This document shows positions 3,291 to 37,747 of a stretch of 64,000 nt of DNA, one piece after another. The position numbers were made by a program, and so were the translations under genes. How positions within the stretch are numbered: the first letter of the stretch is position 1; every line of letters starts with the position of its first letter. Source of the DNA: a virus; the IMG/VR virus record IMGVR_UViG_3300024258_000005; one strand, given 5' to 3'. The notes beneath the pieces were generated by a model, which saw nothing but the letters and a program-made list of their open reading frames with translations, was not told the origin of the DNA and did not search any database.

Positions 3291-3291
3291 A

Positions 3292-4089: not shown

Positions 4090-4097
4090 ATTTATAA

Positions 4098-4943: not shown

Positions 4944-4959
4944 AGATAATCCTTTCTAT

Positions 4960-5120: not shown

Positions 5121-5123
5121 AAG

Positions 5124-5157
5124 ACAAGAGTTACTCAAAGACTTTGAGTCTTTGAGC
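5124..5157 (-). terminator. Hairpin terminator with TCTTGT tail
   Basis: 10-bp stem 5133-5142/5148-5157 just after the DegT stop, followed by aacTCTTGT on the minus strand. Confidence 0.65.
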
Positions 5158-5166
5158 TTAATTCTT

Positions 5167-8539: not shown

Positions 8540-9463
8540 TTATAATAATTCACAACCCTTAGATCGTAGAATATTTCTAATATTCTTTTCACAGAACTTA
8601 CAGCAATCATATTCAAAATCTAATATCTTACCATAATCTTGATCCCATATATTAATACCAGATTCTTCTAGCCATATATAACAAGGGTAAATATTTCCGG
8701 ATTGATCTATATGTATTGATCCATCTTCGAATGAAGTACAATGCATTGTTTTAGACTTGCGTTCTAATTTAGTCTTATTAATTAGTTGATTAGTATAATT
8801 AATTGCGGTCTGATAAAATTTAAGATCTTCGTTGTGAATAGGAAGTTTCTCTAGATTATAATCATCAACATATGTTGAATGATCTCTTGTGAAATAAGTT
8901 TTAGTGTAATTAACATTGTTAAATGTTTCGATCATCTCACGCATTTTTGTACTATTAAGATCTTCTTTATTATATGCAAATAATATATGTTGAATATAAT
9001 CATTCTTATTAATATTCTTGAATGCAGCTGCATTAGCTAAAAGATTATCTAATGAACAATTAACTCTATATGTTTCATGTAATTCTTGTGTGCTTCCACA
9101 TACAGAAAAATATACAGAATCACCTTCTTTTAATAATTTACCTAACTTATACCACCATTCAGGATTATGAGTATCTCCATTAGTACATATCTCTATGTCT
9201 AAATTTAAATTATGTAACTCTTTTATCAAATGAAATATTTCTTTATATAATGTTGGTTCACTTGTTGCACCAACCAAATTAATCTTATTCAAATTAGGAA
9301 ATAGTTTAATCTGTTCAATAATATCTTCTACTGATCTCTCATTATAAAATATCTTACCAGCTTCATTAAGTGTTTTATAATTTCTTGCACATAAAGGACA
9401 ATTTAGATTACATGTTCCGGTTAGATCAAATTCAATCATATTTACTTTACTTCTATCTAACAT
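8540..9463 (-). CDS. Radical SAM protein, paralog group I, with C-terminal Cys motifs (twitch/SPASM-like)
   Basis: CNLNCPLC, SEPT, TNG, then C...GNIYPC...CCKFC. Confidence 0.85.
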   Translation of the reverse strand: MLDRSKVNMIEFDLTGTCNLNCPLCARNYKTLNEAGKIFYNERSVEDIIEQIKLFPNLNKINLVGATSEPTLYKEIFHLIKELHNLNLDIEICTNGDTHNPEWWYKLGKLLKEGDSVYFSVCGSTQELHETYRVNCSLDNLLANAAAFKNINKNDYIQHILFAYNKEDLNSTKMREMIETFNNVNYTKTYFTRDHSTYVDDYNLEKLPIHNEDLKFYQTAINYTNQLINKTKLERKSKTMHCTSFEDGSIHIDQSGNIYPCYIWLEESGINIWDQDYGKILDFEYDCCKFCEKNIRNILRSKGCELL

Positions 9464-10410
9464 ACGAAATCCAATCCACTAATCTCAATCATCTTTTTAG
9501 TCTTAGCTTCACATAAGAAACAATCAGGATATGTAAATTCAAAGATTTTAGTATAATCAAATATATAATCTTTATGTAATTTAGTTGGATCATCACAAAG
9601 GAAATCATCTTTTGATTCAGGAAATTCCATACTAATATAACAGTAATGCATTTGACCAAATTGATTAATATGCATCTTTTTTGTATTGAATGCTTTACAT
9701 TCAATTGTTGCAGCATCACCAACTTTCTTACGACGATTGAATAATGTATTAATTGCATTCTCTCTAGTAATTAAAGGACTTATCTCTTTGGATACTTCCT
9801 TAACATGTTCAGTTAAACGTCTTCGTCCTTCTGTTCCAACAATATAACTATGAGAAAAACCTTTTACAATATCATTCATTGCTTCACTTTTTAAATCTTC
9901 TGTGTTGTATTTGAATTCAATTATTTGAAGGATATCTCTATTAGAATGTAATTTAAATGCTTTGGCATTATTTAGAATTTTACTAAGATCACTACCTACT
10001 CTATATTCAGCATTAACTTCTTGTGAACTTCCACATAATGTAAATGTACAAGAGCTTCTTTCATGTCCTTGTTTAAAAAGCTTTCCAAGAGATTCCCAAT
10101 ATTCAGTACTTTGTAATGAACCATTAGAAAACATATCAATATGTATATTTCTAGAATTAAAGTACTCAATAAGTTCTGGCAATTCTGGATATAATAATGG
10201 TTCACTAATAGCTCCAGCTAACATAATTCTAGTTAAATTTGGAAAGAAATCTAATTGTTTGATAATATCTTTTACTGGTCTAACATTCTTCTTTAATAAG
10301 TGTTGAGCATGAGAATAATTTCTTGTACATAAAGGACATTGTAAATTACATGTACCTGTTAAGTCTATCTCAAACTCTTTTATATCACTTGTTGTTAATG
10401 TTTTTAACAT
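9457..10410 (-). CDS. Radical SAM protein, paralog group I
   Basis: CNLQCPLC, SEPL, SNG, LCGSSQE, C-terminal C...HYC...CFLC. Confidence 0.85.
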   Translation of the reverse strand: MLKTLTTSDIKEFEIDLTGTCNLQCPLCTRNYSHAQHLLKKNVRPVKDIIKQLDFFPNLTRIMLAGAISEPLLYPELPELIEYFNSRNIHIDMFSNGSLQSTEYWESLGKLFKQGHERSSCTFTLCGSSQEVNAEYRVGSDLSKILNNAKAFKLHSNRDILQIIEFKYNTEDLKSEAMNDIVKGFSHSYIVGTEGRRRLTEHVKEVSKEISPLITRENAINTLFNRRKKVGDAATIECKAFNTKKMHINQFGQMHYCYISMEFPESKDDFLCDDPTKLHKDYIFDYTKIFEFTYPDCFLCEAKTKKMIEISGLDFVC

Positions 10411-10412
10411 AA

Positions 10413-11249
10413 CTATCTTCCTTTTAAATGTAATGCTAATTCAGATGTATCTGATTCAGCTTCTGCTAACCTATATATTTTATTATCACTTAATATCTTT
10501 GAATTATTCTTACTACATTCCCAGCAATGTTTATCACCAAAATTCTTAAAAAGACTACAAGGATTTAACTTATTATCAGAACTTAGTAATGCGAAATTAT
10601 ATTCCTCCGCAGGACACTCTTTGGTGATATCTTCTCTATTCAAAGTACTATATGCTTCTGATACTAACTTGGGTAAATGTATTTCACTATCTAATTCAAA
10701 ATGTTCACTGACTGGTAAAGTATGAAAATACTCAGCCTTGTATTTATTAAATCTACTTCTATCATCATCTTTGTTATAATTAAATACAATATAGTTTAAT
10801 ATGCCTTTTTTAGAATACAGGTTAATGATATCTAATCGTCTAAGAACTGTATTTAGATTACTACCTACTCTATATTTTTCATGAAGTTCTTGAGTACTTC
10901 CACATACAGTTAAATATATATGACCGTTAATGCCTTTAAATAACATACCAAGTTTACGATAATACATATCATCATGAGTGTCACCATTAATAAATAATGA
11001 TACTTCTATATCGCGCATTTTTAAGTATCTTAAAAGTGGCACAAGTTTCTTATATAGAGTCGGTTCTGATGTGGGACCAGCCAGAGTAACATACTTAAGA
11101 TCTTTTAAGTTTTCTAATCGTTCAATTAAAACATTATAATCTAATGTTTTATTATCCGTTAATTCAGGATGAGTTTGTCTTATACATAATGGACATTGTA
11201 AATTACATATATTATTTAACTCTATTTCTATTCTTGTTATTTCTCTCAA
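10413..11249 (-). CDS. Radical SAM protein, paralog group I
   Basis: CNLQCPLC, SEPT, VCGSTQELHEKYRVG, C-terminal C...PC...CWEC; TTG start. Confidence 0.85.
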   Translation of the reverse strand: MREITRIEIELNNICNLQCPLCIRQTHPELTDNKTLDYNVLIERLENLKDLKYVTLAGPTSEPTLYKKLVPLLRYLKMRDIEVSLFINGDTHDDMYYRKLGMLFKGINGHIYLTVCGSTQELHEKYRVGSNLNTVLRRLDIINLYSKKGILNYIVFNYNKDDDRSRFNKYKAEYFHTLPVSEHFELDSEIHLPKLVSEAYSTLNREDITKECPAEEYNFALLSSDNKLNPCSLFKNFGDKHCWECSKNNSKILSDNKIYRLAEAESDTSELALHLKGR

Positions 11250-11259
11250 AAGATTTCCT

Positions 11260-11886
11260 TTAAATGTAAACTATATTATCAAAATCTTTTTCAGTTATCC
11301 ATCTCAATTGACTTTCGATTGTTGCATAAGTTCTATAATTTTTTAAAAGTAGTTTGTGATTAGCTTTGCTTAATTGAGGAGTATAATCTTCTAATGATAA
11401 TGAACCAGGAACTATATGAAATAATCTATTATTGTTATCAAGAAATGATTCTAAATTATGAAAGTTATTATCTGTTACAACAATCATATATTGAACATTC
11501 CCTGGTAAATCTTTTATTATCTCAGTATCTAAATTTTCAGAAGCATGGTATAAAATACTATTGAACTTATCAATTAAACTTGGATACTTCTCTAAGAATA
11601 ATCCATTAGTATTTAATGATAAATTATAGTCTTCAAATTCCTCAAGTAAATATAATATTTTTTCTAAGCTTAATGTTCCAACTTCGCCACCAGATAAAGT
11701 AATATTATAATCATTGTATTTCTCATGAACTAATTTAACTTTATTTTGTAATTCAATAGAACTTATAGCTGGTTGATTATGAGTATCAACACAACAATAT
11801 TCACAATTCCAATTACATTTATAAGTAACTATAATTTCAAGTTCTTTCTCATTAGCTTTCATAAAATCTAAATTCATTCCTTCCAT
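11260..11886 (-). CDS. Short radical SAM protein, paralog group II
   Basis: CNWNCEYCCVDTHNQ, SGGEVG, TNGLFL. Confidence 0.85.
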   Translation of the reverse strand: MEGMNLDFMKANEKELEIIVTYKCNWNCEYCCVDTHNQPAISSIELQNKVKLVHEKYNDYNITLSGGEVGTLSLEKILYLLEEFEDYNLSLNTNGLFLEKYPSLIDKFNSILYHASENLDTEIIKDLPGNVQYMIVVTDNNFHNLESFLDNNNRLFHIVPGSLSLEDYTPQLSKANHKLLLKNYRTYATIESQLRWITEKDFDNIVYI

Positions 11887-12578
11887 TATTTGTCCTTTGT
11901 TCTAAGTGAAACACAGTTTTCAAAATCATCTGATTCAAGAAACAATAAAGGTGCATGTGGTAAGAATAACCTATCTTTATATTTTTGATATATTTTAAAA
12001 CCTAATTTTCTATCAAGACCAGATTGATATACCTCTTTAACATAACCAGCATTAGCACCAATAACAGCAAATTGAAATTGAGGATACTTATTTAAATACC
12101 ATTCAATATCTTCAAATGAATCTTTATTTGTTACCACTAGTTGATAAATAAAATTATCATTTACAGGAATATGATCAAAGTGATATAATTTAATTTCTTT
12201 TCTTGATCTAACATCTTGTACTGTATGATAGAGAACATCGCTTATGTATTTAACAACTAAGTCAGGATACTTCTCTAAAAATAGCCCATTTGTATCAACT
12301 GTGATTACACAGTTCTTTTCTTTTAGGATTTCACAATACTTAATAATAAGATCTTTGGATACCATTCCTGGTTCACCACCAGCAAACGAAACAATAGTAT
12401 TATTTGGTACTTTAGCTAATTGATTCATAACAGAAGCATCATCTATCTGTTCATCTTGATTATGTGTGTCTGCACAACAGTACCAACAATCCCAATTACA
12501 TTTAAAAGTTAAATCAACATTGTAATGTATACTTGTTATCTGTTCAAAGTCTATCTTCTCTTCTTGCGTTTCTTGCAT
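11886..12578 (-). CDS. Short radical SAM protein, paralog group II
   Basis: CNWDCWYCCADTHNQ, GGEPG, TNGLFL. Confidence 0.85.
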   Translation of the reverse strand: MQETQEEKIDFEQITSIHYNVDLTFKCNWDCWYCCADTHNQDEQIDDASVMNQLAKVPNNTIVSFAGGEPGMVSKDLIIKYCEILKEKNCVITVDTNGLFLEKYPDLVVKYISDVLYHTVQDVRSRKEIKLYHFDHIPVNDNFIYQLVVTNKDSFEDIEWYLNKYPQFQFAVIGANAGYVKEVYQSGLDRKLGFKIYQKYKDRLFLPHAPLLFLESDDFENCVSLRTKDK

Positions 12579-12579
12579 T

Positions 12580-13143
12580 TTAATTTCCTTTTAATAAATG
12601 ACTTATACTATCCCCGTGTACTTTATAGTTCTTGATTATATATAATGCATTCTTATTTGATAAACTATTTCCATTGACCTCTTTCATACTTGAAACAAAA
12701 AATTGAATATTATAGTTATCATAATACCAATCAAGCGCAAGAAAATTTGAATCATTAACCAACAACATATATGTAATTGGAACACTGATATCAAATAATT
12801 GTATTTCTTTTAACTCTTCTATATGCTCTATACAATGATATAAAATATCATCAACATATTCTTCTACTATCTTTGGATACTTCTCTAAGAATAAACCATT
12901 TGTGTTTAGAACAATCTCACAGTTCTTTTCTTTAAGTAATTTAAAGTACTCAAGAATATCTTCTTCATTAACAGTACCAGGTTCACCACCTTCAATATGG
13001 ACTGAACACCCTTCTGGAATATTCTCAATACATTTAAGTACTTTCTTTTTAGTAGCTTTTGAACTACTTTGATTATGTGTATCAACTATACAATAATTAC
13101 AATGCCAATTACAAACATAAGTTATAGGTAAGAAACAATTCAT
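12580..13143 (-). CDS. Short radical SAM protein, paralog group II
   Basis: CNWHCNYCIVDTHNQ, GGEPG, TNGLFL. Confidence 0.85.
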   Translation of the reverse strand: MNCFLPITYVCNWHCNYCIVDTHNQSSSKATKKKVLKCIENIPEGCSVHIEGGEPGTVNEEDILEYFKLLKEKNCEIVLNTNGLFLEKYPKIVEEYVDDILYHCIEHIEELKEIQLFDISVPITYMLLVNDSNFLALDWYYDNYNIQFFVSSMKEVNGNSLSNKNALYIIKNYKVHGDSISHLLKGN

Positions 13144-13760
13144 CTAAACCCCATTACTTTTACATTTTGATCAACTGATGTATTTTCACCAAGTAGTTGC
13201 AAGATAGACTCTTTTGGAATTATATCTTTAATTTCATTATAGAGTTTAAATGCATTCTTAATACTTAGACTTGTTAAGTTTTGATTTTCATTCTTTCTTG
13301 CTCTATGAACATGAATAGGTAAATCAACATTGAGTAAGAAATCTCTAACAAGATGAAAATTAGTATCATCTGCTATGATAACATAATCCATAGGTACATT
13401 GATAATAGGCATATATACATCGTAATTAGTTAAATCATCTTGTACATGATAAAAGAAGTATTCAATATATTTAACTAACTCAGGATATCTTCTAAAGAAG
13501 AGTCCATTAGTATCCATGTGAATATTACAGTTCTTTTCTAATAATCTTTGTATTATTTCAACTAAAAATTCTTTCTTAGCCATTCCTGGTTCACCACCAG
13601 CAAGAGAAACTAAACTTCCATTTTTTAATGAATCAATACTATCAAATATATCTTGAGGTTTAGGTTCATCTTGATTATGTGTATCAACTATACAATATGA
13701 ACAATCCCAATCACACTTAAAAGTAATTAGTAAACAGTATTTTACTTTAACTTCTTCCAT
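13140..13760 (-). CDS. Short radical SAM protein, paralog group II
   Basis: CDWDCSYCIVDTHNQ, GGEPG, TNGLFF. Confidence 0.85.
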   Translation of the reverse strand: MEEVKVKYCLLITFKCDWDCSYCIVDTHNQDEPKPQDIFDSIDSLKNGSLVSLAGGEPGMAKKEFLVEIIQRLLEKNCNIHMDTNGLFFRRYPELVKYIEYFFYHVQDDLTNYDVYMPIINVPMDYVIIADDTNFHLVRDFLLNVDLPIHVHRARKNENQNLTSLSIKNAFKLYNEIKDIIPKESILQLLGENTSVDQNVKVMGFR

Positions 13761-14644
13761 ATTATTTCCTTTAAAATGTTGATTATATTATCATCTTTAG
13801 TAAGTTCTACCTGATTGAGATTCTTTAGATCTTCTATGCGATATTTCAAACCAAGATCAGTATCCAAATAATCAATATTTAGATACTCAACATCAATACC
13901 GAAGTATTGACATTCTGCTATCATTCGTGGAGAACAATCCCATTTTCTCGAAATAGGAGTATAAATATATTTAGATATATTTATAAATTCTTCATAAGGT
14001 GTTCTTTCAATTTGACATATGTTAGATAATGAATCATAATAATCATTGTCTGTCAGTAATAAATAATTACCCGGATTACTTAAAATATAATCCTTAACTA
14101 CATCAAGTTCTAAAATTCGACAATTACCAGTTAGATACATTAATATTTTATCCGTTCTAATTGGTGATTTCAATTTACTAAATAAGATCTTTTTCTTATA
14201 ATCAATACCATTTACCTTTACTTGTTCATAGACTCTTTGGTCTTGTAACACATGAAGCTTAGGGTTGACATTATTTTTTATTTCTTTGTTTCCACATGCG
14301 AATGTAAAAACATTATCTGATAGATATGTTACTAAATTCATAGTATTTATATCTCCATCCATAAAGAATATATTCTTACATTTAATCAATGTAGGATGAT
14401 AATTATTAAATGTAGTAACGCTTAATAACTTTTCAACTTCTTGTTGAGTGAATGTGTACTTCTTTATAACAGTACGAAAATCTTCTTCTGATAGACCTAT
14501 AAATAGTACTCGGGTATCAAAAACATCTTTTAGAATATAATAGTAATCTATCAATTCAAAGATATGGCCACATATATTGTGACCATTATTATTCCAGGTA
14601 TAAGTTAATATTAACTCACCTTCTAGCATTAATATCTTTTTCAT
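13742..14644 (-). CDS. Glycosyltransferase-like (GT-B-like) protein
   Basis: C-terminal DCSPRMIAECQYFGIDV resembles the GT-B nucleotide-sugar motif; apparent distant paralog of 14648-15472. Confidence 0.4.
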   Translation of the reverse strand: MKKILMLEGELILTYTWNNNGHNICGHIFELIDYYYILKDVFDTRVLFIGLSEEDFRTVIKKYTFTQQEVEKLLSVTTFNNYHPTLIKCKNIFFMDGDINTMNLVTYLSDNVFTFACGNKEIKNNVNPKLHVLQDQRVYEQVKVNGIDYKKKILFSKLKSPIRTDKILMYLTGNCRILELDVVKDYILSNPGNYLLLTDNDYYDSLSNICQIERTPYEEFINISKYIYTPISRKWDCSPRMIAECQYFGIDVEYLNIDYLDTDLGLKYRIEDLKNLNQVELTKDDNIINILKEIIWKKLK

Positions 14645-14647
14645 TTT

Positions 14648-15472
14648 TTAATCTTTTAATATTGTTTGTACCATTAAATCATTTTTGTCTAATGTGTATT
14701 TTTGTAATTGACCATCTTTGATATCTTTTTGGCGTAGTGTAGTGCTATCTTCAATGGTAGTTCTTTCTTCAATTATAATTGGAATATTGTACCATGCTGC
14801 TTCTACTATAATACGATTATTTGTATCTAAACCGATATGAACATAAACAATTTGGTCTATTATATTAAATAGATTTTTAATTATTTTGATATCACTCTTC
14901 ATTAGAATATTCTTTAAATTGTATTTCTCAGCAATTACAGCAATTTCACAACTATCACTCTTTCCCTTATTTACATAACTTAAGAATGTTGTTTCCGTTT
15001 TACAATTTTCAATTTGTTTAAAAATACTAAAGTTCAACTTCAAAGTGCTCTTAATATCAAATTTTTGATAATCATAATAACCAAAATATGTGGTACCATT
15101 CGGGCTTCTATAATTATCATGAGTTTCATTACTATAAACAAAATGTTCACCTCGAACAAAACCTCTTAATCGTTTATAAGATGATACATCAACGAATAAA
15201 GCTTTTCTAACATTATAAGTATACATCTGTACAGTAGTACAGAATTGTATATCAATTTCTTCAATATCGTATTTATCTTTAATAGCATTAAGTGAAAGAA
15301 TTTCATCCTCTTTTAATTTACGCTTAGCAACAATATATAAAGTACATAATGAATGTTGTTGTAGTAAATAAAAATATTCAAATGCATAATAAAAAGAACC
15401 GTTTATTTTGTTATGATCATTTATATAATATACAACCGCATTATGAGATTGTATATGATTAGGATTTATCAT
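14648..15472 (-). CDS. Glycosyltransferase-like (GT-B-like) protein
   Basis: DTNNRIIVEAAWYNIPII resembles the GT-B E-x7-E region. Confidence 0.4.
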   Translation of the reverse strand: MINPNHIQSHNAVVYYINDHNKINGSFYYAFEYFYLLQQHSLCTLYIVAKRKLKEDEILSLNAIKDKYDIEEIDIQFCTTVQMYTYNVRKALFVDVSSYKRLRGFVRGEHFVYSNETHDNYRSPNGTTYFGYYDYQKFDIKSTLKLNFSIFKQIENCKTETTFLSYVNKGKSDSCEIAVIAEKYNLKNILMKSDIKIIKNLFNIIDQIVYVHIGLDTNNRIIVEAAWYNIPIIIEERTTIEDSTTLRQKDIKDGQLQKYTLDKNDLMVQTILKD

Positions 15473-15480: not shown

Positions 15481-16086
15481 CTATGAAATGTCGTTTAGAT
15501 ATTTCGACATGAATGTAGCATATAGTTCATCAACTTTTGATTCATCAGTTGCTAATCTAATCTCTGAAAAATATTCAGTGTATTTCTCTTCTAAATAAGA
15601 ACTTCTAGCAATTTCATCTCTAGCATTTAAATACATCTCAAGTTTATCAATTAAAGCATCATCACCTGTTTCAAGTATTTTGAGATATGTTTCTTCTTTA
15701 TTATCATCATGAATAAAGTATCCATTATCACAAAGAATATTATTGATATTAATATATTGATACATCATTAGTCCAGAAACGTTTGCTTGCTGGTGTGTAA
15801 CCAATTGGCGTACTTTTTTAAGATATATACTTTTGTATAATTCTAACTCATTATTTACATCAACAATGATAAGATCATGTACTTGTATATCAATATTTTT
15901 ATAATCTTTTATAATTCTAACTATTTTATTATTTGATATATGTTTCTTTATTTCACTTGCAGCAAAGGTGCTTAAACCTAAGAAACCTGTGTGGCTCTCA
16001 AACTCTTTATTGTGTGATGCAGTTAAATATTCTATTTCAAAATATGTACCACAATCAATGACTGCTGCCATTTCAAATACTTTCAT
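15481..16086 (-). CDS. Hypothetical protein
   Basis: 201-aa ORF with RBS inside the operon. Confidence 0.75.
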   Translation of the reverse strand: MKVFEMAAVIDCGTYFEIEYLTASHNKEFESHTGFLGLSTFAASEIKKHISNNKIVRIIKDYKNIDIQVHDLIIVDVNNELELYKSIYLKKVRQLVTHQQANVSGLMMYQYININNILCDNGYFIHDDNKEETYLKILETGDDALIDKLEMYLNARDEIARSSYLEEKYTEYFSEIRLATDESKVDELYATFMSKYLNDIS

Positions 16087-16108
16087 TTATATTCCTTTTT
16101 ATTCCTTT

Positions 16109-17035
16109 TTATTTTTCGTAACCATCGCATCGAAGAATGAATTCACAATCTTTACATGAACGAGGTTTATCGTAAGAAGCTATCCTATTAGTTATAGCTG
16201 TTTCTAACATTGACTCTACTGTTATATCCTGAACTGTGGTTAAATCAAATGTTTGAATATTCCAATCAGTTAGATCATATATATGATCTAACGTACTAAC
16301 GCAGTATTTTTCATATCCTTTCATAAAGCAGAAAGGAATATATCTAACAGTCACAGGAACGATATCTTTATCGATAAAGATCATTATCTTAGGAGATACT
16401 TTCTGGTAATCTAAATAATCTAATTTATGTGATGATTCCCATCTATTTAAAGGTAAGAAGTTTAACTGTTGAATTTTAACACCACATCTTATTAGATATT
16501 TTATAATTCTAGCATAATTACGACCATCAAAATCATTTTGAACAGTGCAATTAATTCGAATATCCATATCTAACTCTTGAGCATTCTTAATTGCTTGAAT
16601 TATCTTTCTAAACGCTTTATGATCAACTTTCTCATTATGCGATTTAGTATTCCAACCGTGTAAACTGAATAATATTTCAGATAAGCCATGATCTTTAGCT
16701 TCTTTTAGTTTATCAATATCACTGAAACTAATACCATTTGTAAGCATAGCTATTTTATCAAAGTTTTTACACATATCTAAGATTGTTAAGAACTCAGGAT
16801 GTATAGAACTTTCACCACCTGATAAATCAATACTTGTCATACCAGAAGCTTTCAATAAATTAATTTCATTCTCAATGATACTAAGTTTTCTAAAAGGATC
16901 TTTTAAATTACCTTGATAGTAACAGAATTCACAATTTAAATTACAAGTAGTTCCAGTATTTAATCTACCTCTTAAACATATCGGTTTATCTGGTAGATCA
17001 TTAATTTTGGGCTTTATTATTTTATTTAAATTCAT
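16109..17035 (-). CDS. Radical SAM protein with C-terminal CxxC-x5-C motif
   Basis: CNLNCEFC, LSGGE, TNG, FSLHG, CKDCEFILRCDG. Confidence 0.9.
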   Translation of the reverse strand: MNLNKIIKPKINDLPDKPICLRGRLNTGTTCNLNCEFCYYQGNLKDPFRKLSIIENEINLLKASGMTSIDLSGGESSIHPEFLTILDMCKNFDKIAMLTNGISFSDIDKLKEAKDHGLSEILFSLHGWNTKSHNEKVDHKAFRKIIQAIKNAQELDMDIRINCTVQNDFDGRNYARIIKYLIRCGVKIQQLNFLPLNRWESSHKLDYLDYQKVSPKIMIFIDKDIVPVTVRYIPFCFMKGYEKYCVSTLDHIYDLTDWNIQTFDLTTVQDITVESMLETAITNRIASYDKPRSCKDCEFILRCDGYEK

Positions 17036-17859
17036 ATTATTCTGCTGAATATATCTCTATAAAGAGCATCATAATCGACTTGAAAATACTCTTCTGTATT
17101 TATAACATAAATTGATAAACCATCTCTGATTAAATCTTGAGCCATTACACCAAATTGTTTTTCTTTTGGTAAATCAAGTCCTAGTTCAGTACCATCAACA
17201 TAATAAAATGAATAGAATTTAATAGGAGTTTTACTCTTAATTTTATTCGATGCTACTGTTCCAATATGATTTATTTCAATCTTTAATCGTCTATCGCTAT
17301 AGTTACAACCACAATCTGTATTACATGTACATACATTATTACAAGCACAATCTGAATTACATAAACAGTTATCCGCAATACTAATATAATTGTTTATAAT
17401 ATTATTATAAAAAGCTGCTTCTATTTCTGCTGGACGAGATATTGAAGCTATACCAAAAGTACTAAATGAATTAATAACAGATACCATTTGATCCCATTCG
17501 TATTTATAAGCAACATTTCCTTTAATAGCATTTAAAGTAATTTTAGGAATATACCATGATTGATTACTTGCTTGCTTGTATCTAGGATCAGGATTACTTA
17601 CTCCCCTAGACCAATTATTAGCAATACTATTTAATGAGTGTTTTAAACTTGTAGTGTCTTCTGTACAAACTGTATCAGTAATTCCTACAAAATTTAAAGA
17701 GGGGAAAGCTGCTCCTTGATTAGGTGCATGGTGAGCCGCACAATCAATTCTTCTATCTTGTATAGCAGTAGCGCCTCCATATACTACTTGACCTTCTATT
17801 GTAGCTGGATTAGCTACAAGGGTTGGAGTCGTTTCATCTGTTATATTATTAACTGCCAT
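17032..17859 (-). CDS. Cys-rich fibre-like protein with C-terminal peptidase S74 intramolecular chaperone
   Basis: CLCNSDCACNNVCTCNTDCGCNY followed directly by SDRRLK...GVMAQDL...VDYDAL (S74 signature). Confidence 0.8.
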   Translation of the reverse strand: MAVNNITDETTPTLVANPATIEGQVVYGGATAIQDRRIDCAAHHAPNQGAAFPSLNFVGITDTVCTEDTTSLKHSLNSIANNWSRGVSNPDPRYKQASNQSWYIPKITLNAIKGNVAYKYEWDQMVSVINSFSTFGIASISRPAEIEAAFYNNIINNYISIADNCLCNSDCACNNVCTCNTDCGCNYSDRRLKIEINHIGTVASNKIKSKTPIKFYSFYYVDGTELGLDLPKEKQFGVMAQDLIRDGLSIYVINTEEYFQVDYDALYRDIFSRII

Positions 17860-17892
17860 TTTTATTCCTTTAATTCCTAATTTTCTTAGGAA

Positions 17893-18996
17893 TTAAATTC
17901 CTAAGTGTTTTTGCACGGTTCTATCTATTTTTCCGAATGCTTTATATATTCCACATAAGTCATCTTTTGGATCATGATACTTTTCTTCATATGTTTCTTT
18001 TGTTGATGTATCATGATTTACAATTGGACATTGATAACATACAGTTGCTGTACAACCTTTACAATGTTCAGGAACAAGCATAATTTCTTTATGTCTTTCA
18101 TGTGAAGTCATAACAGCTTCAACCGGATTATCAATATGCCCAATTATAAAATCTTCTTTATTTTCAGAATATAACGCTCCATGACAAACTAAAAGATTAC
18201 CATCAATATCAACATTAGCTATATTCGTACCAGCAGAACAAACATTGCGTTCACCTGTTCCAAACCATGACCAAACGAATCTACCATTAGCTTTATAATA
18301 TTCTATTTCTAGCTTAGCAATCTTTAAAAATTGTTCATTAACTATCTTTAAGAACGGTTCATCTATTACATATTTGTTAGTGTACTCTAATGTAGGAGAA
18401 TAGTTAAAAGTGGGATATTTTTCAATTAGTTCTTTAAAATGTAACCAATTCTCTAATAGATTAGGCATTTCATGAATTGCTAATGTACTCTTTATACTGA
18501 GTTTAATATCTGGAAATTTATCCATTAAGTAATGAACTGAGCTTAGGACTGTACTTGATGTACCTTCACCTTTATGATCAACTCTTTCTAAATCATTATT
18601 AAGACCGTCATAACTTATTTGATAACTAAATCTTGAAGTGTCATCTATAAATAATTTAAAGTTATTAATAATTTTCTCAATATTTTTAACATTAAAACCA
18701 TTAGTATACATGAAGAAATCAACAGGAGAATCTTTAAATTCATTAATCAATCTAATAATCATTTTAGAATTTAGAGTAGGTTCACCACCCCAAAAATTAA
18801 TAGTTACGCCGTTGAACACTTCTAGGAATTTCTCACCATTAAGCATCTCATGAACTGATTTAATAATATCATCTGTATGTAACTGAGGATTCTTATTTTG
18901 AAGCTCTTCCCCTTCGAAACAATAGGTACAAGCCATATCACACTTTTGTGTAGTTGTTACTTCATATGCGAAATATCTTTTTTGTCTTTGATTCAT
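17893..18996 (-). CDS. Radical SAM/SPASM maturase-like protein
   Basis: CDMACTYC, FWGGEPTLN, YTNG, ISYDG; SPASM CSAG...GNLLVCH...CKGC...CYQCP...C. Confidence 0.9.
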   Translation of the reverse strand: MNQRQKRYFAYEVTTTQKCDMACTYCFEGEELQNKNPQLHTDDIIKSVHEMLNGEKFLEVFNGVTINFWGGEPTLNSKMIIRLINEFKDSPVDFFMYTNGFNVKNIEKIINNFKLFIDDTSRFSYQISYDGLNNDLERVDHKGEGTSSTVLSSVHYLMDKFPDIKLSIKSTLAIHEMPNLLENWLHFKELIEKYPTFNYSPTLEYTNKYVIDEPFLKIVNEQFLKIAKLEIEYYKANGRFVWSWFGTGERNVCSAGTNIANVDIDGNLLVCHGALYSENKEDFIIGHIDNPVEAVMTSHERHKEIMLVPEHCKGCTATVCYQCPIVNHDTSTKETYEEKYHDPKDDLCGIYKAFGKIDRTVQKHLGI

Positions 18997-19241
18997 GATT
19001 TCTCAATTTGACCAAGAATATCATCATAGTCATCGGCACTTAATTTAGAAGCATCTAATTTAGAATTTTCTTCCATTGCAGTTAAAGTAACTTTTGCCAT
19101 ATTAAATATAGTAGCAGCTGCGTCATTAAAACCAGCATCGTCTAATATATTACCAGCTTGAACTAAATGCCAAATTGAAGCCTTTAATTGTACTTCTAAA
19201 GGCTCATCTTTTAATGGAGTCTCTTTATTTTCTTCATTCAT
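18993..19241 (-). CDS. Hypothetical protein (82 aa)
   Basis: ORF with RBS, overlaps the downstream radical SAM start by 4 nt. Confidence 0.7.
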   Translation of the reverse strand: MNEENKETPLKDEPLEVQLKASIWHLVQAGNILDDAGFNDAAATIFNMAKVTLTAMEENSKLDASKLSADDYDDILGQIEKS

Positions 19242-19251
19242 TTTTATATCC

Positions 19252-19767
19252 TTAAATTTGTATTTTATATTGTTCTGATAATGTTTCTAACACATCTAAC
19301 TTTTGTAAATTATATATTGGAACGTTGTAAGTATCAGCTACACCAATAGCTAAACCCGTTCCACCTGTATCTTTACCGACTTCTTCTTTATTTGTAGCAC
19401 CATCTATAGTCCAACATATTAAGAAATCACTTGGACGATCTAAACCTATTCCTAGAACTTGATGAACATTTCTAGCCATGAGTCTTTTAACTGGTGTTTT
19501 TAAATATTTCCAACTCCGATGATGTTCAGATGCTATATCAAATGCTTGAGGCCAAATATTAAATAAACTTGATGTGTTATTATTAAAACCTTTCCATGGC
19601 AGAAATATATCTTTCTTATCAATATCTTTTTCAAATGCTAAATCTGCTCCATCTGCTCCACCAGATCTTAGAATATATGTATCTTTAAATACTTGTGAGA
19701 AGCTTGACATAAATTCTAAAATTGCTGTTGGAGTCTTTCTTGCGCCTATCCCTGTATAGTAATTCAT
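19252..19767 (-). CDS. SLOG-fold (DprA/YpsA-like) protein
   Basis: YTGIGARKTP, LRSGGADGAD, TGGTG. Confidence 0.75.
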   Translation of the reverse strand: MNYYTGIGARKTPTAILEFMSSFSQVFKDTYILRSGGADGADLAFEKDIDKKDIFLPWKGFNNNTSSLFNIWPQAFDIASEHHRSWKYLKTPVKRLMARNVHQVLGIGLDRPSDFLICWTIDGATNKEEVGKDTGGTGLAIGVADTYNVPIYNLQKLDVLETLSEQYKIQI

Positions 19768-20312
19768 GACTTATATTCTAACGGCATTGTAGCTATGCTA
19801 ATAATATGATCAATTGTTCCATCATCAACATCAACAACAATATATGGAATTGAATTTTTCATTAATAAATGAGCAATTGTATCATCTAAAAGTTTAGCAC
19901 CTTCCAAATCTTGTTCTCTACCATACTCTTCGTATAGAGCTTCTTTATTTCTTCTAAGAAGAATATTAACATTATTATATCTATTAAATTGTTCTTTTAG
20001 ATAAGCATTAAATTCAGCAATTGGTATCTTAGTTTCACAACAATATGACATTCCCATTATGAATGGACTATCATGTACAGCATAATCAACTTTATTAAGA
20101 AGTCTATACATTCTATGATGCTGTTCACCTGCTACCAATAGTTGGTCAGAAAGTCTAAACCAATCTTCTGAATATACTAATTCTTTAGCAAACTCTTGAG
20201 TCATATCAACTTTCTTTCCTAGCATTTTTAATCTATCAAATACAGCAGCAGCTGTTCTACTTTTACCAACTCCTGGGCCTCCGAATAGGTTTATATTTAT
20301 TGCACTTTTCAC
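19764..20312 (-). CDS. P-loop nucleotide kinase / AAA_28 (NadR-like) protein
   Basis: GGPGVGKS Walker A, EFAKEL, HDSP. Confidence 0.75.
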   Translation of the reverse strand: MKSAININLFGGPGVGKSRTAAAVFDRLKMLGKKVDMTQEFAKELVYSEDWFRLSDQLLVAGEQHHRMYRLLNKVDYAVHDSPFIMGMSYCCETKIPIAEFNAYLKEQFNRYNNVNILLRRNKEALYEEYGREQDLEGAKLLDDTIAHLLMKNSIPYIVVDVDDGTIDHIISIATMPLEYKS

Positions 20313-21289
20313 ATATTTTCCTTTTCAAATAAAATTAACAGAGTATGTCGTGTTCTAGATATTAATTCTGTAATCTCTTTATTAATGTACTTGTAGATCT
20401 CACATAACTCAGCGATAGGAGCTTTGTTTTTAATTTGCTCATAAGTACACCCACGATGACAAAATTGACTTATGTCGCATTTATCACACACATCAGTTAC
20501 TATATATTTATTAGTTAATAATGTTGTAGAGTCTCTCTCGAAACGCTCGCATGCAACTATTTTCTTCTGAGGAGTAATTGCCCAGTAGCTTGTTCCTACT
20601 CCACAATCTTCTTGTTCATGACCTTTCATAAAGAATTCTAGAACAGGATTGAGATATGTTTTAATTAATCCTGGTATCTCATTGTAAGTCTTATATTGTT
20701 TAAAGTCACCAAGATAATTAATGTATTTAGTAAACTCTTTATTAAATGTTTGAACTTGTTCATCATTCCATGAACCAATGTCTCTAACAAGAGTCATATC
20801 AGGAACTAATCCTACATCTATAAGAGCTTCGTGTTGTTTAATAAGAATATTATCTTGCATATCAATTCCATTAATCATACAATGACCATGAGTTGCACCT
20901 GCTTCAATTAATGATCGAATATAGATTCGATGATTCCCTCGATGAGCTTCTTGAAAAATACCATCATATGATATAGTGGTTCTAATATTAGGATGCTCCA
21001 CAATTTTTTTAACTGTTTTATTATATATTGTCCCATTTGTAGTTATTACAATTTGAATCAAATTTGGATGAGATTCTAATTTATTTATTATATATTCTAC
21101 AATATCTAATTGTAGAAAAACTTCCCCACCGAATATACTAAACACAAAAGGCTCAGTTAAATTCAACATAAATTCATCAAAGTACGCTTCGTCTAATCTA
21201 AGTTTATTATTGACGTCAACATTACAATATGTACAATTCATATTACATAACTCTGATACCACATAATGCCAATGTTTTACATCTTTCAT
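20309..21289 (-). CDS. Radical SAM/SPASM maturase-like protein
   Basis: CNMNCTYC, FGGE, TTNGT, ISYDG; CGVG...VACERF...CDKC...CHRGC...C. Confidence 0.9.
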   Translation of the reverse strand: MKDVKHWHYVVSELCNMNCTYCNVDVNNKLRLDEAYFDEFMLNLTEPFVFSIFGGEVFLQLDIVEYIINKLESHPNLIQIVITTNGTIYNKTVKKIVEHPNIRTTISYDGIFQEAHRGNHRIYIRSLIEAGATHGHCMINGIDMQDNILIKQHEALIDVGLVPDMTLVRDIGSWNDEQVQTFNKEFTKYINYLGDFKQYKTYNEIPGLIKTYLNPVLEFFMKGHEQEDCGVGTSYWAITPQKKIVACERFERDSTTLLTNKYIVTDVCDKCDISQFCHRGCTYEQIKNKAPIAELCEIYKYINKEITELISRTRHTLLILFEKENM

Positions 21290-21304
21290 TACTAGCCTTT
21301 ATAT

Positions 21305-21495
21305 TATTATTTCTATGGTAATTATTGAATCTCTTTAAAGATAATAATTTTTTTACCCTAAAAGATAATAATTTTTTTTACCCTAAAAGATAATAATTAG
21401 AAAATAATTGCTATCTTTTAGGGTAATTTTTTTAGGTAAGGAAATTCAATACTATAGTCTAAAAATTCTATAGAATTACCCCAAAAGATAGAAAT
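21305..21495. promoter_or_regulatory. Intergenic motif block B
   Basis: ATTTCTATGGTAA 21309-21321; TTACCCTAAAAGATA at 21353, 21378 and inverted at 21412; variant at 21476. Confidence 0.6.
21337..21398. repeat. 24/25-bp direct repeat, about 2.5 copies (AAAGATAATAA-T7/8-ACCCTA)
   Basis: Read directly from the sequence. Confidence 0.9.
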
Positions 21496-21500
21496 TAAAG

Positions 21501-21542
21501 ACAAGAGATGTAGAGGTAAGGATTAAACCTTAACCTCTACAT
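21501..21542 (-). terminator. Hairpin terminator with TCTTGT tail
   Basis: Stem ATGTAGAGGT/ACCTCTACAT enclosing the stop of 21523-23421, then cTCTTGT. Confidence 0.65.
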
Positions 21543-23421
21543 AACCACCTTTCGAAGGAGTAATAGCTATACCAATTAATGGTTCACTACTATAATATGA
21601 ATCTTTAGATTGTGATCTAGTCACACCTATAACTTTTCCGAACTCTTTTGGATCTGGGAAAATATACATACCTCTAACTATATCATGATTTGTCTTAACT
21701 GGGATCCGTCCTTTTAAGGCAACAAAAATATAATCTTTTGTTCTAACTGAAGCATTAAGTTCAAGCCCTGGTGAAGTAGAAACAACACCCGCTAATGGTA
21801 ATTCAGGATTATACAAAGTAACTTCTGTATCTATACCAATACTAAGAACCGTACCTGGCTCATATTGTAAATCACTTTCGTATTTTTCAGCTAAATCTGC
21901 ATACTCTGCAGATGTCGCAACACCTTCAAATTTACCACCATCTGTTTTAAAATCAAATGCTGTAACTCTGCCTGAGAAAGTACCATTTGCACCATTCTTA
22001 AGAGAATATGTATTATTTAAATCTAAATCACCACCTAATAATAATCCACCTGCTGCAGTAATTTTACCAGTACTTGTAAAAGTACCAGCATTTTCAAAAT
22101 TACCATGTACATACATATTTCTCAAAACATCTAAATCTCTTCCAAGATAAGTATCTTTACCAGTTATTTGATGAATCTCATCGTTGAATGTTGCTTCGCC
22201 TGTTAAAGTCATATCACCTGCATTCGTAACAATAAATTTTACATCACCAAGCTTCTCAATAAAAATTGAATTTTCAGTTTGAATGTCACCAACTACTGTT
22301 AAGTATCCACCTACTGTTAAGTATCCACCTACTGTTAAATAATTACCAACTGTAAAGTATTCACTGATAGTACCAAAACCATCAAGTATATTAAGATTAC
22401 CTAATCCAGTAATTTCGATATCTCCAGCTGCTGTAGCGATACCAGTAGTAACATCTAATCGGCCATCACCAGTACTAATATCACCTGTACCTGTACTAAT
22501 ATTACCAGCTCCTGTATTAACAAAACCATTATTAGTTGAAGTAACACCATCTCTAATAAAACTTAAACCTCTAGTAATATCTAAATTACCATTTGAAGCA
22601 ACTATATTACCAATGTCAGTTCTGATTTCACCATCAACTGTTGTAATATGACCTTGTCCACCAACATTAACAAAACCACCACCAGCATTACTTCTAAAAC
22701 CAGTATTAACATGACAATATCCAAGTGAACTTAGAATATTACCGTTTGTTGTTAATGAATTATCTGATGAATTGGTTGAATTAATAGTAACTTTTCCAGT
22801 AGTATCAACTTTAAAAAATGTTTGAACTTCAAATGTTCCAGGTAGATAAACTATATTAAAACGACTAGCATCACCAATAGTTAAAAGGTGAGTATTTTCA
22901 TTCATATTTAAAATAGTTTGATCTTTATACCACATTGATAAAGCATCAATATATAACCAATCTCTATTTACTTGAAGATTTTCTATATCGTAACCTGTTA
23001 AAAGCCCTTCTACATAAGTAGGCGATTTAATAGGACCGGTAAAGTATTCTAATTTTTTTAGATGTAATATTTCAGCAGTATCTTCTATGATGGCATCAGC
23101 TCTACGACTTTCTTTTCGAAGTTGACCTAAAGCAAAATAATTTTTAGATAATTCATCAACTGTTAAATCTTTAAGAGCACCAACATTTATTTCAAGTTGA
23201 AGCATATCAGCTCTAAGTAATTCATTTGAATTATGTGTAACTTCTAATAGTTTTGTAACTATTATTTTGTAATCATTTTCTAGCTTATACGATAATTCGT
23301 CACTCTGCTCATAATAAGCAGCAACATCATTCGTAAGGCCTTGAATATTACTTTTTAATTTAGCCTCGTTAAATTTTAGGGCATTTAAAGTTGCTACTTC
23401 TTGCAGTATTGACTTTGACAT
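21523..23421 (-). CDS. Tail fibre/spike protein with C-terminal peptidase G2-type intramolecular chaperone
   Basis: N-terminal coiled coil, Gly/Thr/Asn-rich beta repeats, then YADLAEKY...GVVSTSPG...VALKGRIPV. Confidence 0.7.
   Translation of the reverse strand: MSKSILQEVATLNALKFNEAKLKSNIQGLTNDVAAYYEQSDELSYKLENDYKIIVTKLLEVTHNSNELLRADMLQLEINVGALKDLTVDELSKNYFALGQLRKESRRADAIIEDTAEILHLKKLEYFTGPIKSPTYVEGLLTGYDIENLQVNRDWLYIDALSMWYKDQTILNMNENTHLLTIGDASRFNIVYLPGTFEVQTFFKVDTTGKVTINSTNSSDNSLTTNGNILSSLGYCHVNTGFRSNAGGGFVNVGGQGHITTVDGEIRTDIGNIVASNGNLDITRGLSFIRDGVTSTNNGFVNTGAGNISTGTGDISTGDGRLDVTTGIATAAGDIEITGLGNLNILDGFGTISEYFTVGNYLTVGGYLTVGGYLTVVGDIQTENSIFIEKLGDVKFIVTNAGDMTLTGEATFNDEIHQITGKDTYLGRDLDVLRNMYVHGNFENAGTFTSTGKITAAGGLLLGGDLDLNNTYSLKNGANGTFSGRVTAFDFKTDGGKFEGVATSAEYADLAEKYESDLQYEPGTVLSIGIDTEVTLYNPELPLAGVVSTSPGLELNASVRTKDYIFVALKGRIPVKTNHDIVRGMYIFPDPKEFGKVIGVTRSQSKDSYYSSEPLIGIAITPSKGGYVEVKV
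22293..22338. repeat. 18-bp coding tandem repeat (LTVGGY), about 2.5 copies
   Basis: CTACTGTTAAGTATCCAC twice plus a partial copy. Confidence 0.9.
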
Positions 23422-23433
23422 TATCCATCCTTT

Positions 23434-23895
23434 TTATATTCCATATGTTTTTGATATATTTTCTATACTTTGAAGAATTATTCTACAAGCTCTAGCAGGC
23501 GATAAATCAACCTGTACTGTATTTTCATTTATAATTGTTATTGGCACTATCGAATTTTGCCATCCAGCTGTTTCCAATACCCAAATATTATATTGAAAAA
23601 ATTCAGTATCTAAATTATGATTAAATATATGTTGTACATTTACAGCACCTTCATACATTACATTATTATCATTTATATTATTTATAACTCTTTCTACTTC
23701 AAGTGAATCAGTTCCAGTTCCAGTTGATAAAGTATCAACTACTGCTAATGCATCTGCTAAGTTATTAACACCTGCTAAGTTACCCACACCAGGCGCAGTA
23801 TTTATTGTATTAGATATTACACTTTTAAATCTAAGGTCTGATGCTTTTACATTTTGAACAATGCCATCTGAATTAGTTACATCTATATATCTCAT
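23434..23895 (-). CDS. Probable small virion protein
   Basis: HNL-type motif (FNHNLDT), beta-rich, lies between fibre genes. Confidence 0.55.
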   Translation of the reverse strand: MRYIDVTNSDGIVQNVKASDLRFKSVISNTINTAPGVGNLAGVNNLADALAVVDTLSTGTGTDSLEVERVINNINDNNVMYEGAVNVQHIFNHNLDTEFFQYNIWVLETAGWQNSIVPITIINENTVQVDLSPARACRIILQSIENISKTYGI

Positions 23896-24305
23896 GCAAA
23901 TACCTCATTATAACCCACGTAATTAAGCGTTAATACTGAGTTATCAGTAATCCATTGACTTGGTATATTTAAAGCTGTAATATCAAAGTATAAGTGATTA
24001 TCAACCATATGCTGAGAAAGTTCCTCATTGATTTCAATATCTCCAATACCATTAAAATATATATTATCTATATAAACTACTTTGTTTGGAAATGGTATAC
24101 TTAGTATACCATCATCGATTGTTAATCCTGTAATAACTTTATCTTTATAATGCACGAAGTCAAATTCTGAGACAAAAGTGTGAAATAATTCCTTAACTGA
24201 TAATCCTTCTAGGCTATCAGTATTCTTAGAGATTATTGTTCCATCTCTAATACCTGAAACAATAGTTCTAACTATTGTTTCATAATTATCTATTATTACA
24301 CTCAT
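23892..24305 (-). CDS. Hypothetical protein
   Basis: 137-aa ORF in the fibre operon. Confidence 0.7.
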   Translation of the reverse strand: MSVIIDNYETIVRTIVSGIRDGTIISKNTDSLEGLSVKELFHTFVSEFDFVHYKDKVITGLTIDDGILSIPFPNKVVYIDNIYFNGIGDIEINEELSQHMVDNHLYFDITALNIPSQWITDNSVLTLNYVGYNEVFA

Positions 24306-37711: not shown

Positions 37712-37747
37712 ACAAGAGTATCTAATCGGCTACATGCCGATTAGATA
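37712..37747 (-). terminator. Hairpin terminator with TCTTGT tail
   Basis: 12-bp perfect stem TATCTAATCGGC/GCCGATTAGATA overlapping the terL stop, then cTCTTGT. Confidence 0.75.

Follow-up and report, generated by a model that had tools for sequence, protein, structure and literature searches.

Thioether formation by radical S-adenosylmethionine (rSAM) enzymes is, to our knowledge, known almost only from small secreted peptides, and the protein substrates are few, namely QhpC and, described in 2026, CrpA. The residues that accept the Cys sulphur differ between enzymes: PapB uses Asp and Glu (PMC12373016), NxxcB uses Asn and tolerates Ala, Gln or Asp (PMC9389541), and CrpC uses C-X-X-Q/D (PMC13692751). 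PapB can also link Cys to a C-terminal residue beside the free carboxylate (PMC12373016), and CrpC, a SPASM-type rSAM enzyme, equips the 28.8-kDa Cys-rich protein CrpA with ranthionine links (PMC13692751), which by analogy offers a direct precedent for the stapling of a full-size Cys-rich protein by a SPASM enzyme. Here we analyse a 64,000-nt stretch of viral DNA (IMG/VR record IMGVR_UViG_3300024258_000005; hereafter the window) in which a gene for a 275-residue protein, carrying a repetitive Cys array fused to an S74 intramolecular chaperone domain, lies directly downstream of a gene for a SPASM-type rSAM enzyme. Comparison of this locus with its relatives leads us to favour, at somewhat better than even chances, the reading in which the 275-residue protein is a full-size, leader-less substrate of the enzyme encoded directly upstream (17893-18996), which resembles CteB and PapB and has no recognition element (RRE) of the kind used for peptides that ribosomes make and that are modified after translation (RiPPs). 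All genes of the region are on the minus strand, and the features on which the argument turns are the following.

17032-17859, minus strand: Cys-array protein, 275 residues, consisting of an N-terminal helical domain, four CxCNxx hexads and an S74 chaperone
17299-17367, minus strand: Cys array, residues 165-187 (CLCNSDCACNNVCTCNTDCGCNY), the most conserved segment of the family, proposed modification site and proposed mature C-terminus
17035-17298, minus strand: Peptidase_S74 / intramolecular chaperone domain (PF13884), residues 188-275, starting SDRRLK
17893-18996, minus strand: SPASM-type rSAM enzyme, 367 residues, no RRE, assigned from a Radical_SAM match and a seven-Cys pattern; proposed maturase of the array protein

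The Cys array and its family

In the translated open reading frame (ORF) at 17032-17859 the array reads CLCNSD-CACNNV-CTCNTD-CGCNY, that is, four C-x-C-N-x-x hexads with eight Cys, and Tandem Repeats Finder detected the corresponding 18-nt period in its DNA. The first Cys codon occupies 17367-17365, the last 17307-17305, and the codons of Tyr187 and Ser188 follow at 17301-17299 and 17298-17296. Three NxxC motifs (N168/C171, N174/C177 and N180/C183) fall within the array, and SDRRLK abuts its end without a gap. An earlier note, made from the letters of the window, had already reported the hexads, the NxxC motifs and the fusion to an S74 motif, and the translation and Pfam bear it out: PF13884 matches residues 188-244 at 28.6 bits, above its cut-off of 22. 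The domain opens with S188-D-R-R-L-K193, an S-D-x-R-x-K start with the Ser nucleophile and a Lys five residues on, and in the family profile the equivalent SDkrLK is aligned to SDERHK, with which the cleaved GA-1 chaperone 3gud begins. By this homology the S74 cut would probably fall between Tyr187 and Ser188, in agreement with the note's claim that the array ends at the predicted cleavage site.

The AlphaFold2 (AF2) monomer model of the protein has a mean per-residue confidence (pLDDT) of 79.6; the N-terminal and S74 domains are confidently modelled and array residues 169-185 fall below 50, a prediction compatible with a segment that depends on modification, metal or partner chains. Residues 181-275 of the model aligned, in VIA-align and with modest scores, with the ICA domain of MyRF (7dc3, Z 4.2), the K1F chaperone (3gw6, Z 4.0) and the GA-1 chaperone (3gud, Z 3.7). 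For the N-terminal domain a wide VIA-align search returned only generic helical matches (Z ≤5.9), and Foldseek found no PDB match to the model at E ≤0.001. Prediction of a homotrimer of the 275-residue protein (three copies, 110-row alignment) gave an ipSAE of 0.00, which counts neither way.

No Pfam or NCBIfam family match covers the array, and our literature search found no description of such a family. A word-based search returned seven relatives of the array protein with 25-43% identity to the window protein, and a profile search of 1.84 billion representatives returned 188 cluster representatives at E ≤1e-10. Among relatives of 21-43% identity no segment is better conserved than the array: of its eight Cys, seven are invariant (C167, the exception, is kept in at least 90%), as are N168, N180, N186 and C40 of the N-terminal domain, and H43 of that domain is nearly so. 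Cys and Asn invariance across such divergence indicates that the array is a real, non-random feature, and it defines a large, unnamed and undescribed family. The consensus of 85 four-hexad arrays is C[ILV]CNSD-C[AS]CNxV-CxC[NH]x[DN]-CGCNY, with a super-period of 12 residues; Tyr187 is kept in 84 of the 85 and is the last or next-to-last residue of the forms without S74, and S-D-x-R-L-K is present in 50-60 of the 85, the remainder having no S74 domain.

Position 4 of the canonical hexad is N (or H/D), and array variants among the relatives comprise two or three hexads, an NCNY-type repeat or nine hexads. Two metagenomic loci carry hyper-expanded arrays: L154:2211-3560 encodes 449 residues with 105 Cys and 37 hexads, with an rSAM gene one gene upstream, and L158:1-1468 encodes a 489-residue fragment with 152 Cys and 59 hexads. 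In these two arrays position 4 is E, N, D or Q in 36 of 37 and 56 of 59 hexads (92 of 96), residues that, judged by sequence, would match the acceptor classes of PapB, NxxcB and CrpC.

Family proteins are 150-832 residues long. Their N-terminal regions vary from ~130 to ~650 residues, with extensions of 500-600 residues in P0068, P0110 and P0140, and the conserved unit is the last ~150 residues, made up of a CxxH(R/H) motif, three helices and the array; in the AF2 model of the window protein the N-terminal domain is folded. The C-x-x-H-(R/H) motif occupies residues 40-44 of the window protein (17740-17730), ~125 residues before the array, and is kept in relatives, many of which add a Cys/His-rich N-terminus (MAC..HC..H...C.GHR..C). 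These motifs could form a second metal or modification site.

Past the array the 153 representatives that were fetched take three forms. A full S74 domain is present in 72; 41 have a short tail of 12-24 residues (mostly 14) that ends right after SDxRLKxxIx; and 33 stop 2-6 residues past the last Cys (...CNY, CNYG, CHY). In the three short-tail loci with readable DNA the remaining S74 sequence was found in the next, separate ORF, which in L016:3473-4209 and L017:186-964 is in the -1 frame with a 7-nt overlap and in L054:3181-3974 starts at an ATG of its own 18 nt downstream. The short-tail forms represent either a conserved split S74 (perhaps a trans-acting chaperone) or a programmed frameshift. 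The earlier note had proposed that S74 unmasks the array, a step that is not essential to the system, since about a fifth of the representatives have no S74 and another quarter only the short tail; on these sequences S74 appears as a dispensable add-on and not as the core of the system. The S74-less proteins end just where the S74 cut is predicted in the others, so that all three forms probably share ...CNY as their mature C-terminus.

The SPASM-type enzyme and its pairing with the array gene

The enzyme encoded at 17893-18996 matches Pfam Radical_SAM (PF04055) at 40.2 bits, above the cut-off of 29.5. Its rSAM motif (C19-x3-C23-x2-C26) and seven further Cys of SPASM type (C253, C271, C312, C315, C320, C323 and C348) are invariant in 15 orthologs, a sequence pattern that fits three clusters, the rSAM cluster and two auxiliary 4Fe-4S clusters. 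Among solved structures the nearest are CteB (5wgg, E 9e-20), in an alignment that covers CteB residues 103-423 and spans the seven-Cys region, and the anaerobic sulfatase-maturating enzyme anSME (E 2e-15, full length). The best NCBIfam matches are PapB (NF047865, 78.6 bits against a cut-off of 340), the CXXX-repeat maturase (TIGR04115, 59.4 against 350) and, in third place, QhpD (54.8 against 453); the CrpC family (TIGR04463) scores 29.2 bits against 525. These comparisons place the enzyme in a new clade of the SPASM maturase group, outside every named family. The earlier note was right that neither SPASM protein has an N-terminal RRE: there is no room for one, as CxxxCxxC begins at residue 19 in this enzyme and at residue 15 in its paralog at 20309, and the CteB match lies past the RRE of CteB. 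Two hallmarks of classical RiPP pathways are thus absent: the enzyme starts at the rSAM core, with no RRE/PqqD-like domain, and the candidate substrates are proteins of 150-832 residues rather than short leader-core precursors.

The resemblance to anSME bears on a reading in which the enzyme does modify the array protein, by radical chemistry of another kind: formylglycine formation (anSME), C-terminal Tyr processing (MftC-type), epimerisation, or C-C or C-O links. Besides being the second-best solved relative and aligning over its full length, anSME has no RRE and acts on proteins, as the window enzyme would. The near-invariant Tyr187, at or next to the end of the S74-less forms, and the reaction of PapB beside a free C-terminal carboxylate (PMC12373016) point the same way. 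The array, however, has no sulfatase motif (C/S-x-P/A-x-R), its eight near-invariant Cys and its Asn/Asp/Glu-type positions look more like donor-acceptor repeats, and the best family-level matches of the enzyme are thioether formers, so that we think chemistry of this other kind quite unlikely.

Pairing of the two genes was assessed in both directions. A hidden Markov model of the upstream enzyme scored its orthologs at 196-579 bits and other rSAM paralogs at 20-136 bits, and the forward scans looked for DNA encoding CxCNxDCxCNxVC in viral contigs, metagenomes and Genome Taxonomy Database (GTDB) genomes; such direct DNA-pattern scans worked better than a locus search by array alignment, which confirmed 2 of 404 pattern matches. 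On the contigs that encode array proteins, an ortholog was located between -28 and +15 nt from the array gene in eight of nine distinct contexts. It stood directly upstream in all 10 viral loci that could be judged, in 44 of the 45 metagenomic loci whose upstream DNA sufficed for a judgement (between -28 and +14 nt) and in all three GTDB loci (two Halobacteriovorax genomes and one Bdellovibrionales metagenome-assembled genome, MAG), although the three collections overlap and these counts are not independent. At the 45th metagenomic locus, L154, a gene one position away encodes a weaker rSAM relative (83 bits), and in a looser case, L018, the ortholog is 4.4 kb upstream of the array gene in the same island. 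The metagenome scan had given 65 pattern matches and 56 ORFs, nine matches having no array ORF; two spurious ORFs and nine without upstream DNA were excluded, and the set amounts to 51 distinct ORF sequences with the two spurious ones included.

In the reverse test viral contigs were searched with an alignment of 15 enzyme orthologs, closer relatives being those that scored at least 156 bits. A Cys-repeat ORF adjoined the enzyme in 28 of 34 closer-relative loci, 0-15 nt downstream in 26 of these; in the other two it came after a split enzyme copy (L072) or just upstream (L054). With distant relatives (70-113 bits) the ORF that follows often carries a two-hexad array or some other Cys repeat (CHSN tetrads, CQxA), and at L093 and L110 an enzyme relative accompanies a Cys-repeat ORF with no other rSAM gene within the ~4-kb flank on each side.

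Seen from both directions, the array gene and the 17893-type SPASM rSAM gene form a conserved, obligate and tightly spaced pair. The earlier note had put forward this co-occurrence as a check and had held that its proposal would suffer if homologs usually lacked an adjacent rSAM gene; the co-occurrence was found, and nearly all homologs that could be judged have the gene next to them. Radical_SAM matches likewise confirmed the rSAM genes that the note had seen around the array gene, at 17893, at 16109 with a 4-nt overlap, and at 20309 (SPASM-like). The sandwich that it drew from them stands on one side only, since the pairing with 17893 is conserved and the adjacency of 16109 is peculiar to the window. 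Because ten rSAM genes crowd the window island (Pfam Radical_SAM in ten genes between 8540 and 21289, ~13 kb), local flanking by such genes is unremarkable. Maturation of the Cys array by an rSAM enzyme is, as far as sequence can tell, the best-supported reading, and it is comparative genomics, not the local sandwich, that backs it.

Because a maturase-type rSAM gene lies directly upstream in almost every relative, the array protein is probably cross-linked enzymatically rather than merely a Cys-rich fibre. As the enzyme has no RRE, we propose that it would recognise the conserved N-terminal domain of its substrate instead of a leader peptide. Intramolecular thioethers from array Cys to carbons of nearby Asn or Asp would be the most likely links, each hexad offering C1-x-x-N4 and C3-x-x-D6 as donor-acceptor pairs, and the product would be a rigid, reduction-proof C-terminal knot. 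Where present, S74 would, judging from its homologs, bring about trimerisation and afterwards release itself by cleavage at Tyr187|Ser188, leaving ...CGCNY; in S74-less relatives the gene itself would end at the same point. As a speculation, the S74 cut might create an acceptor, with the carboxylate of the terminal Tyr possibly being used, an idea that we base on the use of a free C-terminal carboxylate by PapB.

Several observations weigh against cross-linking by this enzyme. The array has CxCxxxCxC spacing, which is typical also of metallothionein-like metal-thiolate clusters. CxC on a threefold axis would, by analogy, parallel the Fe-binding HxH of T4 gp37 (PMC11705849). The enzyme misses the curated cut-off of every characterised maturase family, and its SPASM domain is divergent, scoring 16.6 bits with Pfam SPASM (PF13186), under the cut-off of 21.5, for which reason its SPASM membership rests on the Cys pattern and on homology to CteB and anSME. 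Six of its closer relatives (L057, L062 and L064-L067) have no Cys-repeat neighbour. All loci may descend from one mobile cassette, in which case adjacency shows shared function and not an enzyme-substrate relation; and the many other rSAM, sugar-nucleotide and uncharacterised genes of that cassette hint at a product more complex than a stapled protein.

The array might accordingly be pictured as a self-sufficient structural element of a trimeric fibre, with axial metal ligation, a metallothionein-like cluster or disulfides, transient or permanent, while the rSAM enzyme acts on another product of the cassette (a sugar or a small molecule). S74 domains, of which the window protein has a confirmed one, come after trimeric stalks, and Cys spaced i/i+2 with a period of 6 or 12 residues would suit inward-facing positions of a beta-solenoid. 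Tail-fibre HxH-Fe sites are documented (PMC11705849), and in the P22 tailspike a C-terminal Cys annulus assists auto-chaperone folding (PMC3357383). The other rSAM and sugar-nucleotide enzymes of the cassette, moreover, need substrates of their own, and the cassette adjoins fibre-like genes in the window and in L003, L008 and L014. A purely structural array nevertheless leaves unexplained the 0-15 nt spacing of one SPASM ortholog, kept through 21-24% identity, and the pairing of distant enzymes with other Cys-repeat proteins where no other rSAM gene lies within ~4 kb; and as S74 is missing from a fifth of the members and from the bacterial copies, chemistry at a trimer axis cannot be universal. 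We therefore hold this account to be rather unlikely. A metal-thiolate or disulfide trimer core might also exist alongside modification by the enzyme.

The surrounding cassette in phages and predatory bacteria

Around the pair, the cassette of the window comprises the following further genes.

18993-19241, minus strand: small helical ORF, 82 residues, position kept just upstream of the SPASM rSAM gene
16109-17035, minus strand: second cassette rSAM, 308 residues, with a MoaA/HxsC-like core and a short C-terminal CxxCx5C (Radical_SAM 64 bits; 4-nt overlap with the array gene)
15481-16086, minus strand: conserved 201-residue partner, usually directly downstream of the array gene (32 homologs; phrog_25260, function unknown)
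13742-15472, minus strand: two paralogous ORFs of 300 and 274 residues, function unknown, found after the 201-residue ORF in most cassettes (300-residue ORF: phrog_24441, E 1e-32)
20309-21289, minus strand: paralogous PapB-like rSAM, 326 residues, with SPASM-like Cys (Radical_SAM 38 bits; NCBIfam PapB 65.4 bits)

The contexts that were read share one order: an ORF of ~80 residues predicted to be helical, the SPASM rSAM (360-410 residues), the array gene, an ORF of ~200 residues, ORFs of ~250 and ~300 residues (those at 13742-15472 in the window), and further rSAM genes. The array/SPASM pair is thus the core of a larger cassette common to marine phages and predatory Bdellovibrionota. ORFs of 75-87 residues with 24-40% identity occupy the 18993 position in L001, L003, L004, L008, L016 and L019. 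No family match was obtained for the small ORF at 18993-19241; it was considered as a stand-alone RRE, a role that its helical-looking sequence and lack of a family match leave unsupported. In most loci examined, whether viral, metagenomic or bacterial, a homolog of the 201-residue partner comes next after the array gene. Its AF2 model (pLDDT 85) has a small beta domain and long helices and gave no fold match, Foldseek finding no PDB match at E ≤0.001; a structural-atlas search with this model yielded nothing of use, nor did two ESM-Atlas searches. Most cassettes have an ortholog of the 16109 enzyme (190-334 bits), separated from the array gene by 1.35-3.1 kb on its downstream side, and counterparts of the 20309 enzyme (~330 residues) lie upstream of the SPASM rSAM gene, at a distance of one to three genes, in L001, L003, L004, L016, L020, L022, L024, L028, L034 and L036.

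Seven further rSAM genes stand in a row at 8540-13760 of the window, three of them for ~280-317 residues (8540-11249) and four for small tandem paralogs of 187-230 residues (11260-13760) that start CNWxCxYC...DTHNQ. With ten rSAM enzymes requiring clusters and reductant, the array protein might instead serve these enzymes by carrying or scaffolding Fe-S clusters, donating electrons or supplying sulphur. We know of no Fe-S ferredoxin motif of the CxC-hexad kind. The conserved CxxH(R/H) of the N-terminal domain could supply extra ligands, and archaeal Cys-rich proteins are mostly predicted to ligate metal cofactors, predicted electron shuttling being commonest among their neighbours (PMC13692751). 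A self-cleaving trimerisation module, N-terminal extensions of 500-600 residues and arrays of 37-59 hexads ill fit a redox helper, however, and minimal two-gene loci exist, which makes such an accessory role very unlikely in our estimation.

The window is part of a large marine phage of the jumbo class, with a terminase large subunit gene at 37730-39700 and an RNA-polymerase beta-like gene at 54924-58022, and an identical array protein is recorded on a 260-kb contig. Its GC content is ~29% and its DNA occurs in seawater metagenomes. A blastn search with 16001-24000 found only ~160 nt of rSAM core in common with rSAM genes of Campylobacter and Yersinia phages; the nearest cultured relatives at the DNA level are the rSAM cores of Campylobacter phages CP220 and CPt10, whose many rSAM genes were remarked upon in 2010 (PMC2853527). 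The window also holds a run of sugar-nucleotide genes at 1490-5784 (UDP-glucose dehydrogenase-like, NAD-dependent epimerase/dehydratase, AstE/AspA-like deacylase and DegT-family aminotransferase), a Tad6-like gene (Thoeris inhibitor, PF25188, E 5.5e-26) at 4227-4943, and two homing/HNH endonuclease genes (phrog_3339) at 28332-30041 and 59064-60200, inside the structural and replication regions.

In a related seawater sample (run X4) a DNA contig joins 18747 to 20311 through 40 unrelated letters, skipping the 5' end of the enzyme gene, the small ORF, a DprA-like gene and a kinase-like gene; the junction reflects variation between strains or else a false join of the two paralogous rSAM genes. 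Contigs of three seawater metatranscriptome runs of 2025 match 16.7-21.4 kb of the window (16670-21440) at ≥99%, one piece spanning the enzyme/array-gene junction (17855-18098). As DNA carry-over into these assembled contigs is possible and the runs were chosen by the same stretch, we take neither the matches as proof that the cassette is transcribed nor the uncovered flanks as silent.

The earlier note had placed the array at the tip of a virion fibre, and the S74 module and some surroundings of the cassette recall fibres. A 632-residue protein encoded at 21523-23421, whose C-terminal 100 residues match tail-fibre PHROGs and include an AEYADLAEKY motif, stands first in a block of fibre-like genes found ahead of the cassette both in the window and in L003; in relatives, upstream genes encode Big_9/cadherin, collagen-like and FG-GAP proteins; and residues 45-300 of the relative P0014 match long-tail-fibre PHROGs. 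Other findings speak against such a role, and in this part the note's proposal is not upheld. Outside its S74 module the window protein shows no homology to structural proteins, with no PHROG match and no tblastn match in 50,697 phage records, and the family, with its C-terminus conserved and its N-terminus variable, is arranged the other way round from a typical receptor-binding fibre. A Halobacteriovorax contig of 2.2 Mb also carries the complete cassette, in chromosomal surroundings whose flanking N-termini look cellular by eye and whose GC content the cassette matches.

The bacterial cassettes, L036-L039 (G001:C1, ~1.709-1.733 Mb), L037 and L034, come from Halobacteriovorax genomes and the Bdellovibrionales MAG; the Halobacteriovorax carriers seem to be isolated strains (L036). 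They contain several rSAM genes, an S74-less array protein and the 200-residue ORF, with no obvious phage genes flanking, as well as ORFs that, judged by N-terminal sequence only, resemble sugar-nucleotide enzymes and a 526-residue pilin-like protein. The sharing of the cassette by phages and predators is suggestive of a role on the surface of an attacker of Gram-negative cells, a hypothesis at this stage. We tentatively sketch, as a picture that we would not yet bet on, a multi-enzyme pathway shared by phages and predatory bacteria in which an RRE-less SPASM enzyme staples the CxC-hexad C-terminus of a self-trimerising, self-cleaving surface protein and neighbouring rSAM, sugar-nucleotide and uncharacterised genes may elaborate it further.

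Should this picture hold, the array protein would be, as far as the literature shows, the first rSAM-matured (RiPP-like) structural or adhesin protein of a virus. With enzymatic cross-linking there would be hundreds of viral and predator protein substrates with a simple repeat-based recognition and an RRE-independent enzyme, and the orphan rSAM genes of large phages, remarked since CP220 and CPt10, would have a first concrete target. A matured protein on the surface of a virion or predator would represent a new way to make an adhesin resistant to reduction and proteolysis, and the RRE-less enzyme with its hexad tag could serve for protein stapling.

Comparison with known systems

The S74 half of the window protein is like that of the known chaperones (K1F endosialidase, GA-1 neck appendage, T5 pb1 and MyRF) in its SD-x-R-x-K start and perhaps, at modest alignment scores, in its predicted fold. 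The known cargoes of those chaperones, in contrast, are beta-helical or stalk domains without Cys arrays or dedicated modifying enzymes, and S74 is dispensable or split here. The HxH iron sites of T4 gp37 (PMC11705849) and the P22 Cys annulus (PMC3357383) share with the array the placement of i/i+2 ligand-type residues near the C-terminus of what is presumably a trimeric phage protein. No rSAM enzyme is known to be associated with those systems, and in the array the residues are Cys instead of His.

Among systems with an rSAM maturase, PapA/PapB (freyrasin), the SCIFF pair CteA/CteB and NxxcA/NxxcB resemble the locus in their tandem short Cys repeats and in Asp/Asn acceptors, putative ones here, NxxC occurring three times in the window array. 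Their substrates are short leader-core peptides recognised by an RRE, unlike the candidate substrate here, a protein of 150-830 residues. QhpC/QhpD is similar in that a SPASM rSAM enzyme makes Cys-Asp/Glu thioethers in a protein that stays in a larger assembly; QhpC, the gamma subunit of quinohemoprotein amine dehydrogenase, differs in carrying a quinone cofactor and in having no repeat array and no S74.

The CrpA/CrpC pair of Methanococcus voltae (PMC13692751) is archaeal and not viral; CrpC has an RRE and belongs to TIGR04463, whereas the phage enzyme has neither attribute, and CrpA has a 17-residue repeat, no CxCNxx hexads and no S74. Yet there too a three-cluster SPASM rSAM enzyme is encoded beside a full-size protein, one with a C-terminal repeated Cys motif, acceptor spacing of the C-X-X-(Q/D) type and an N-terminal part that is thought to mediate recognition.

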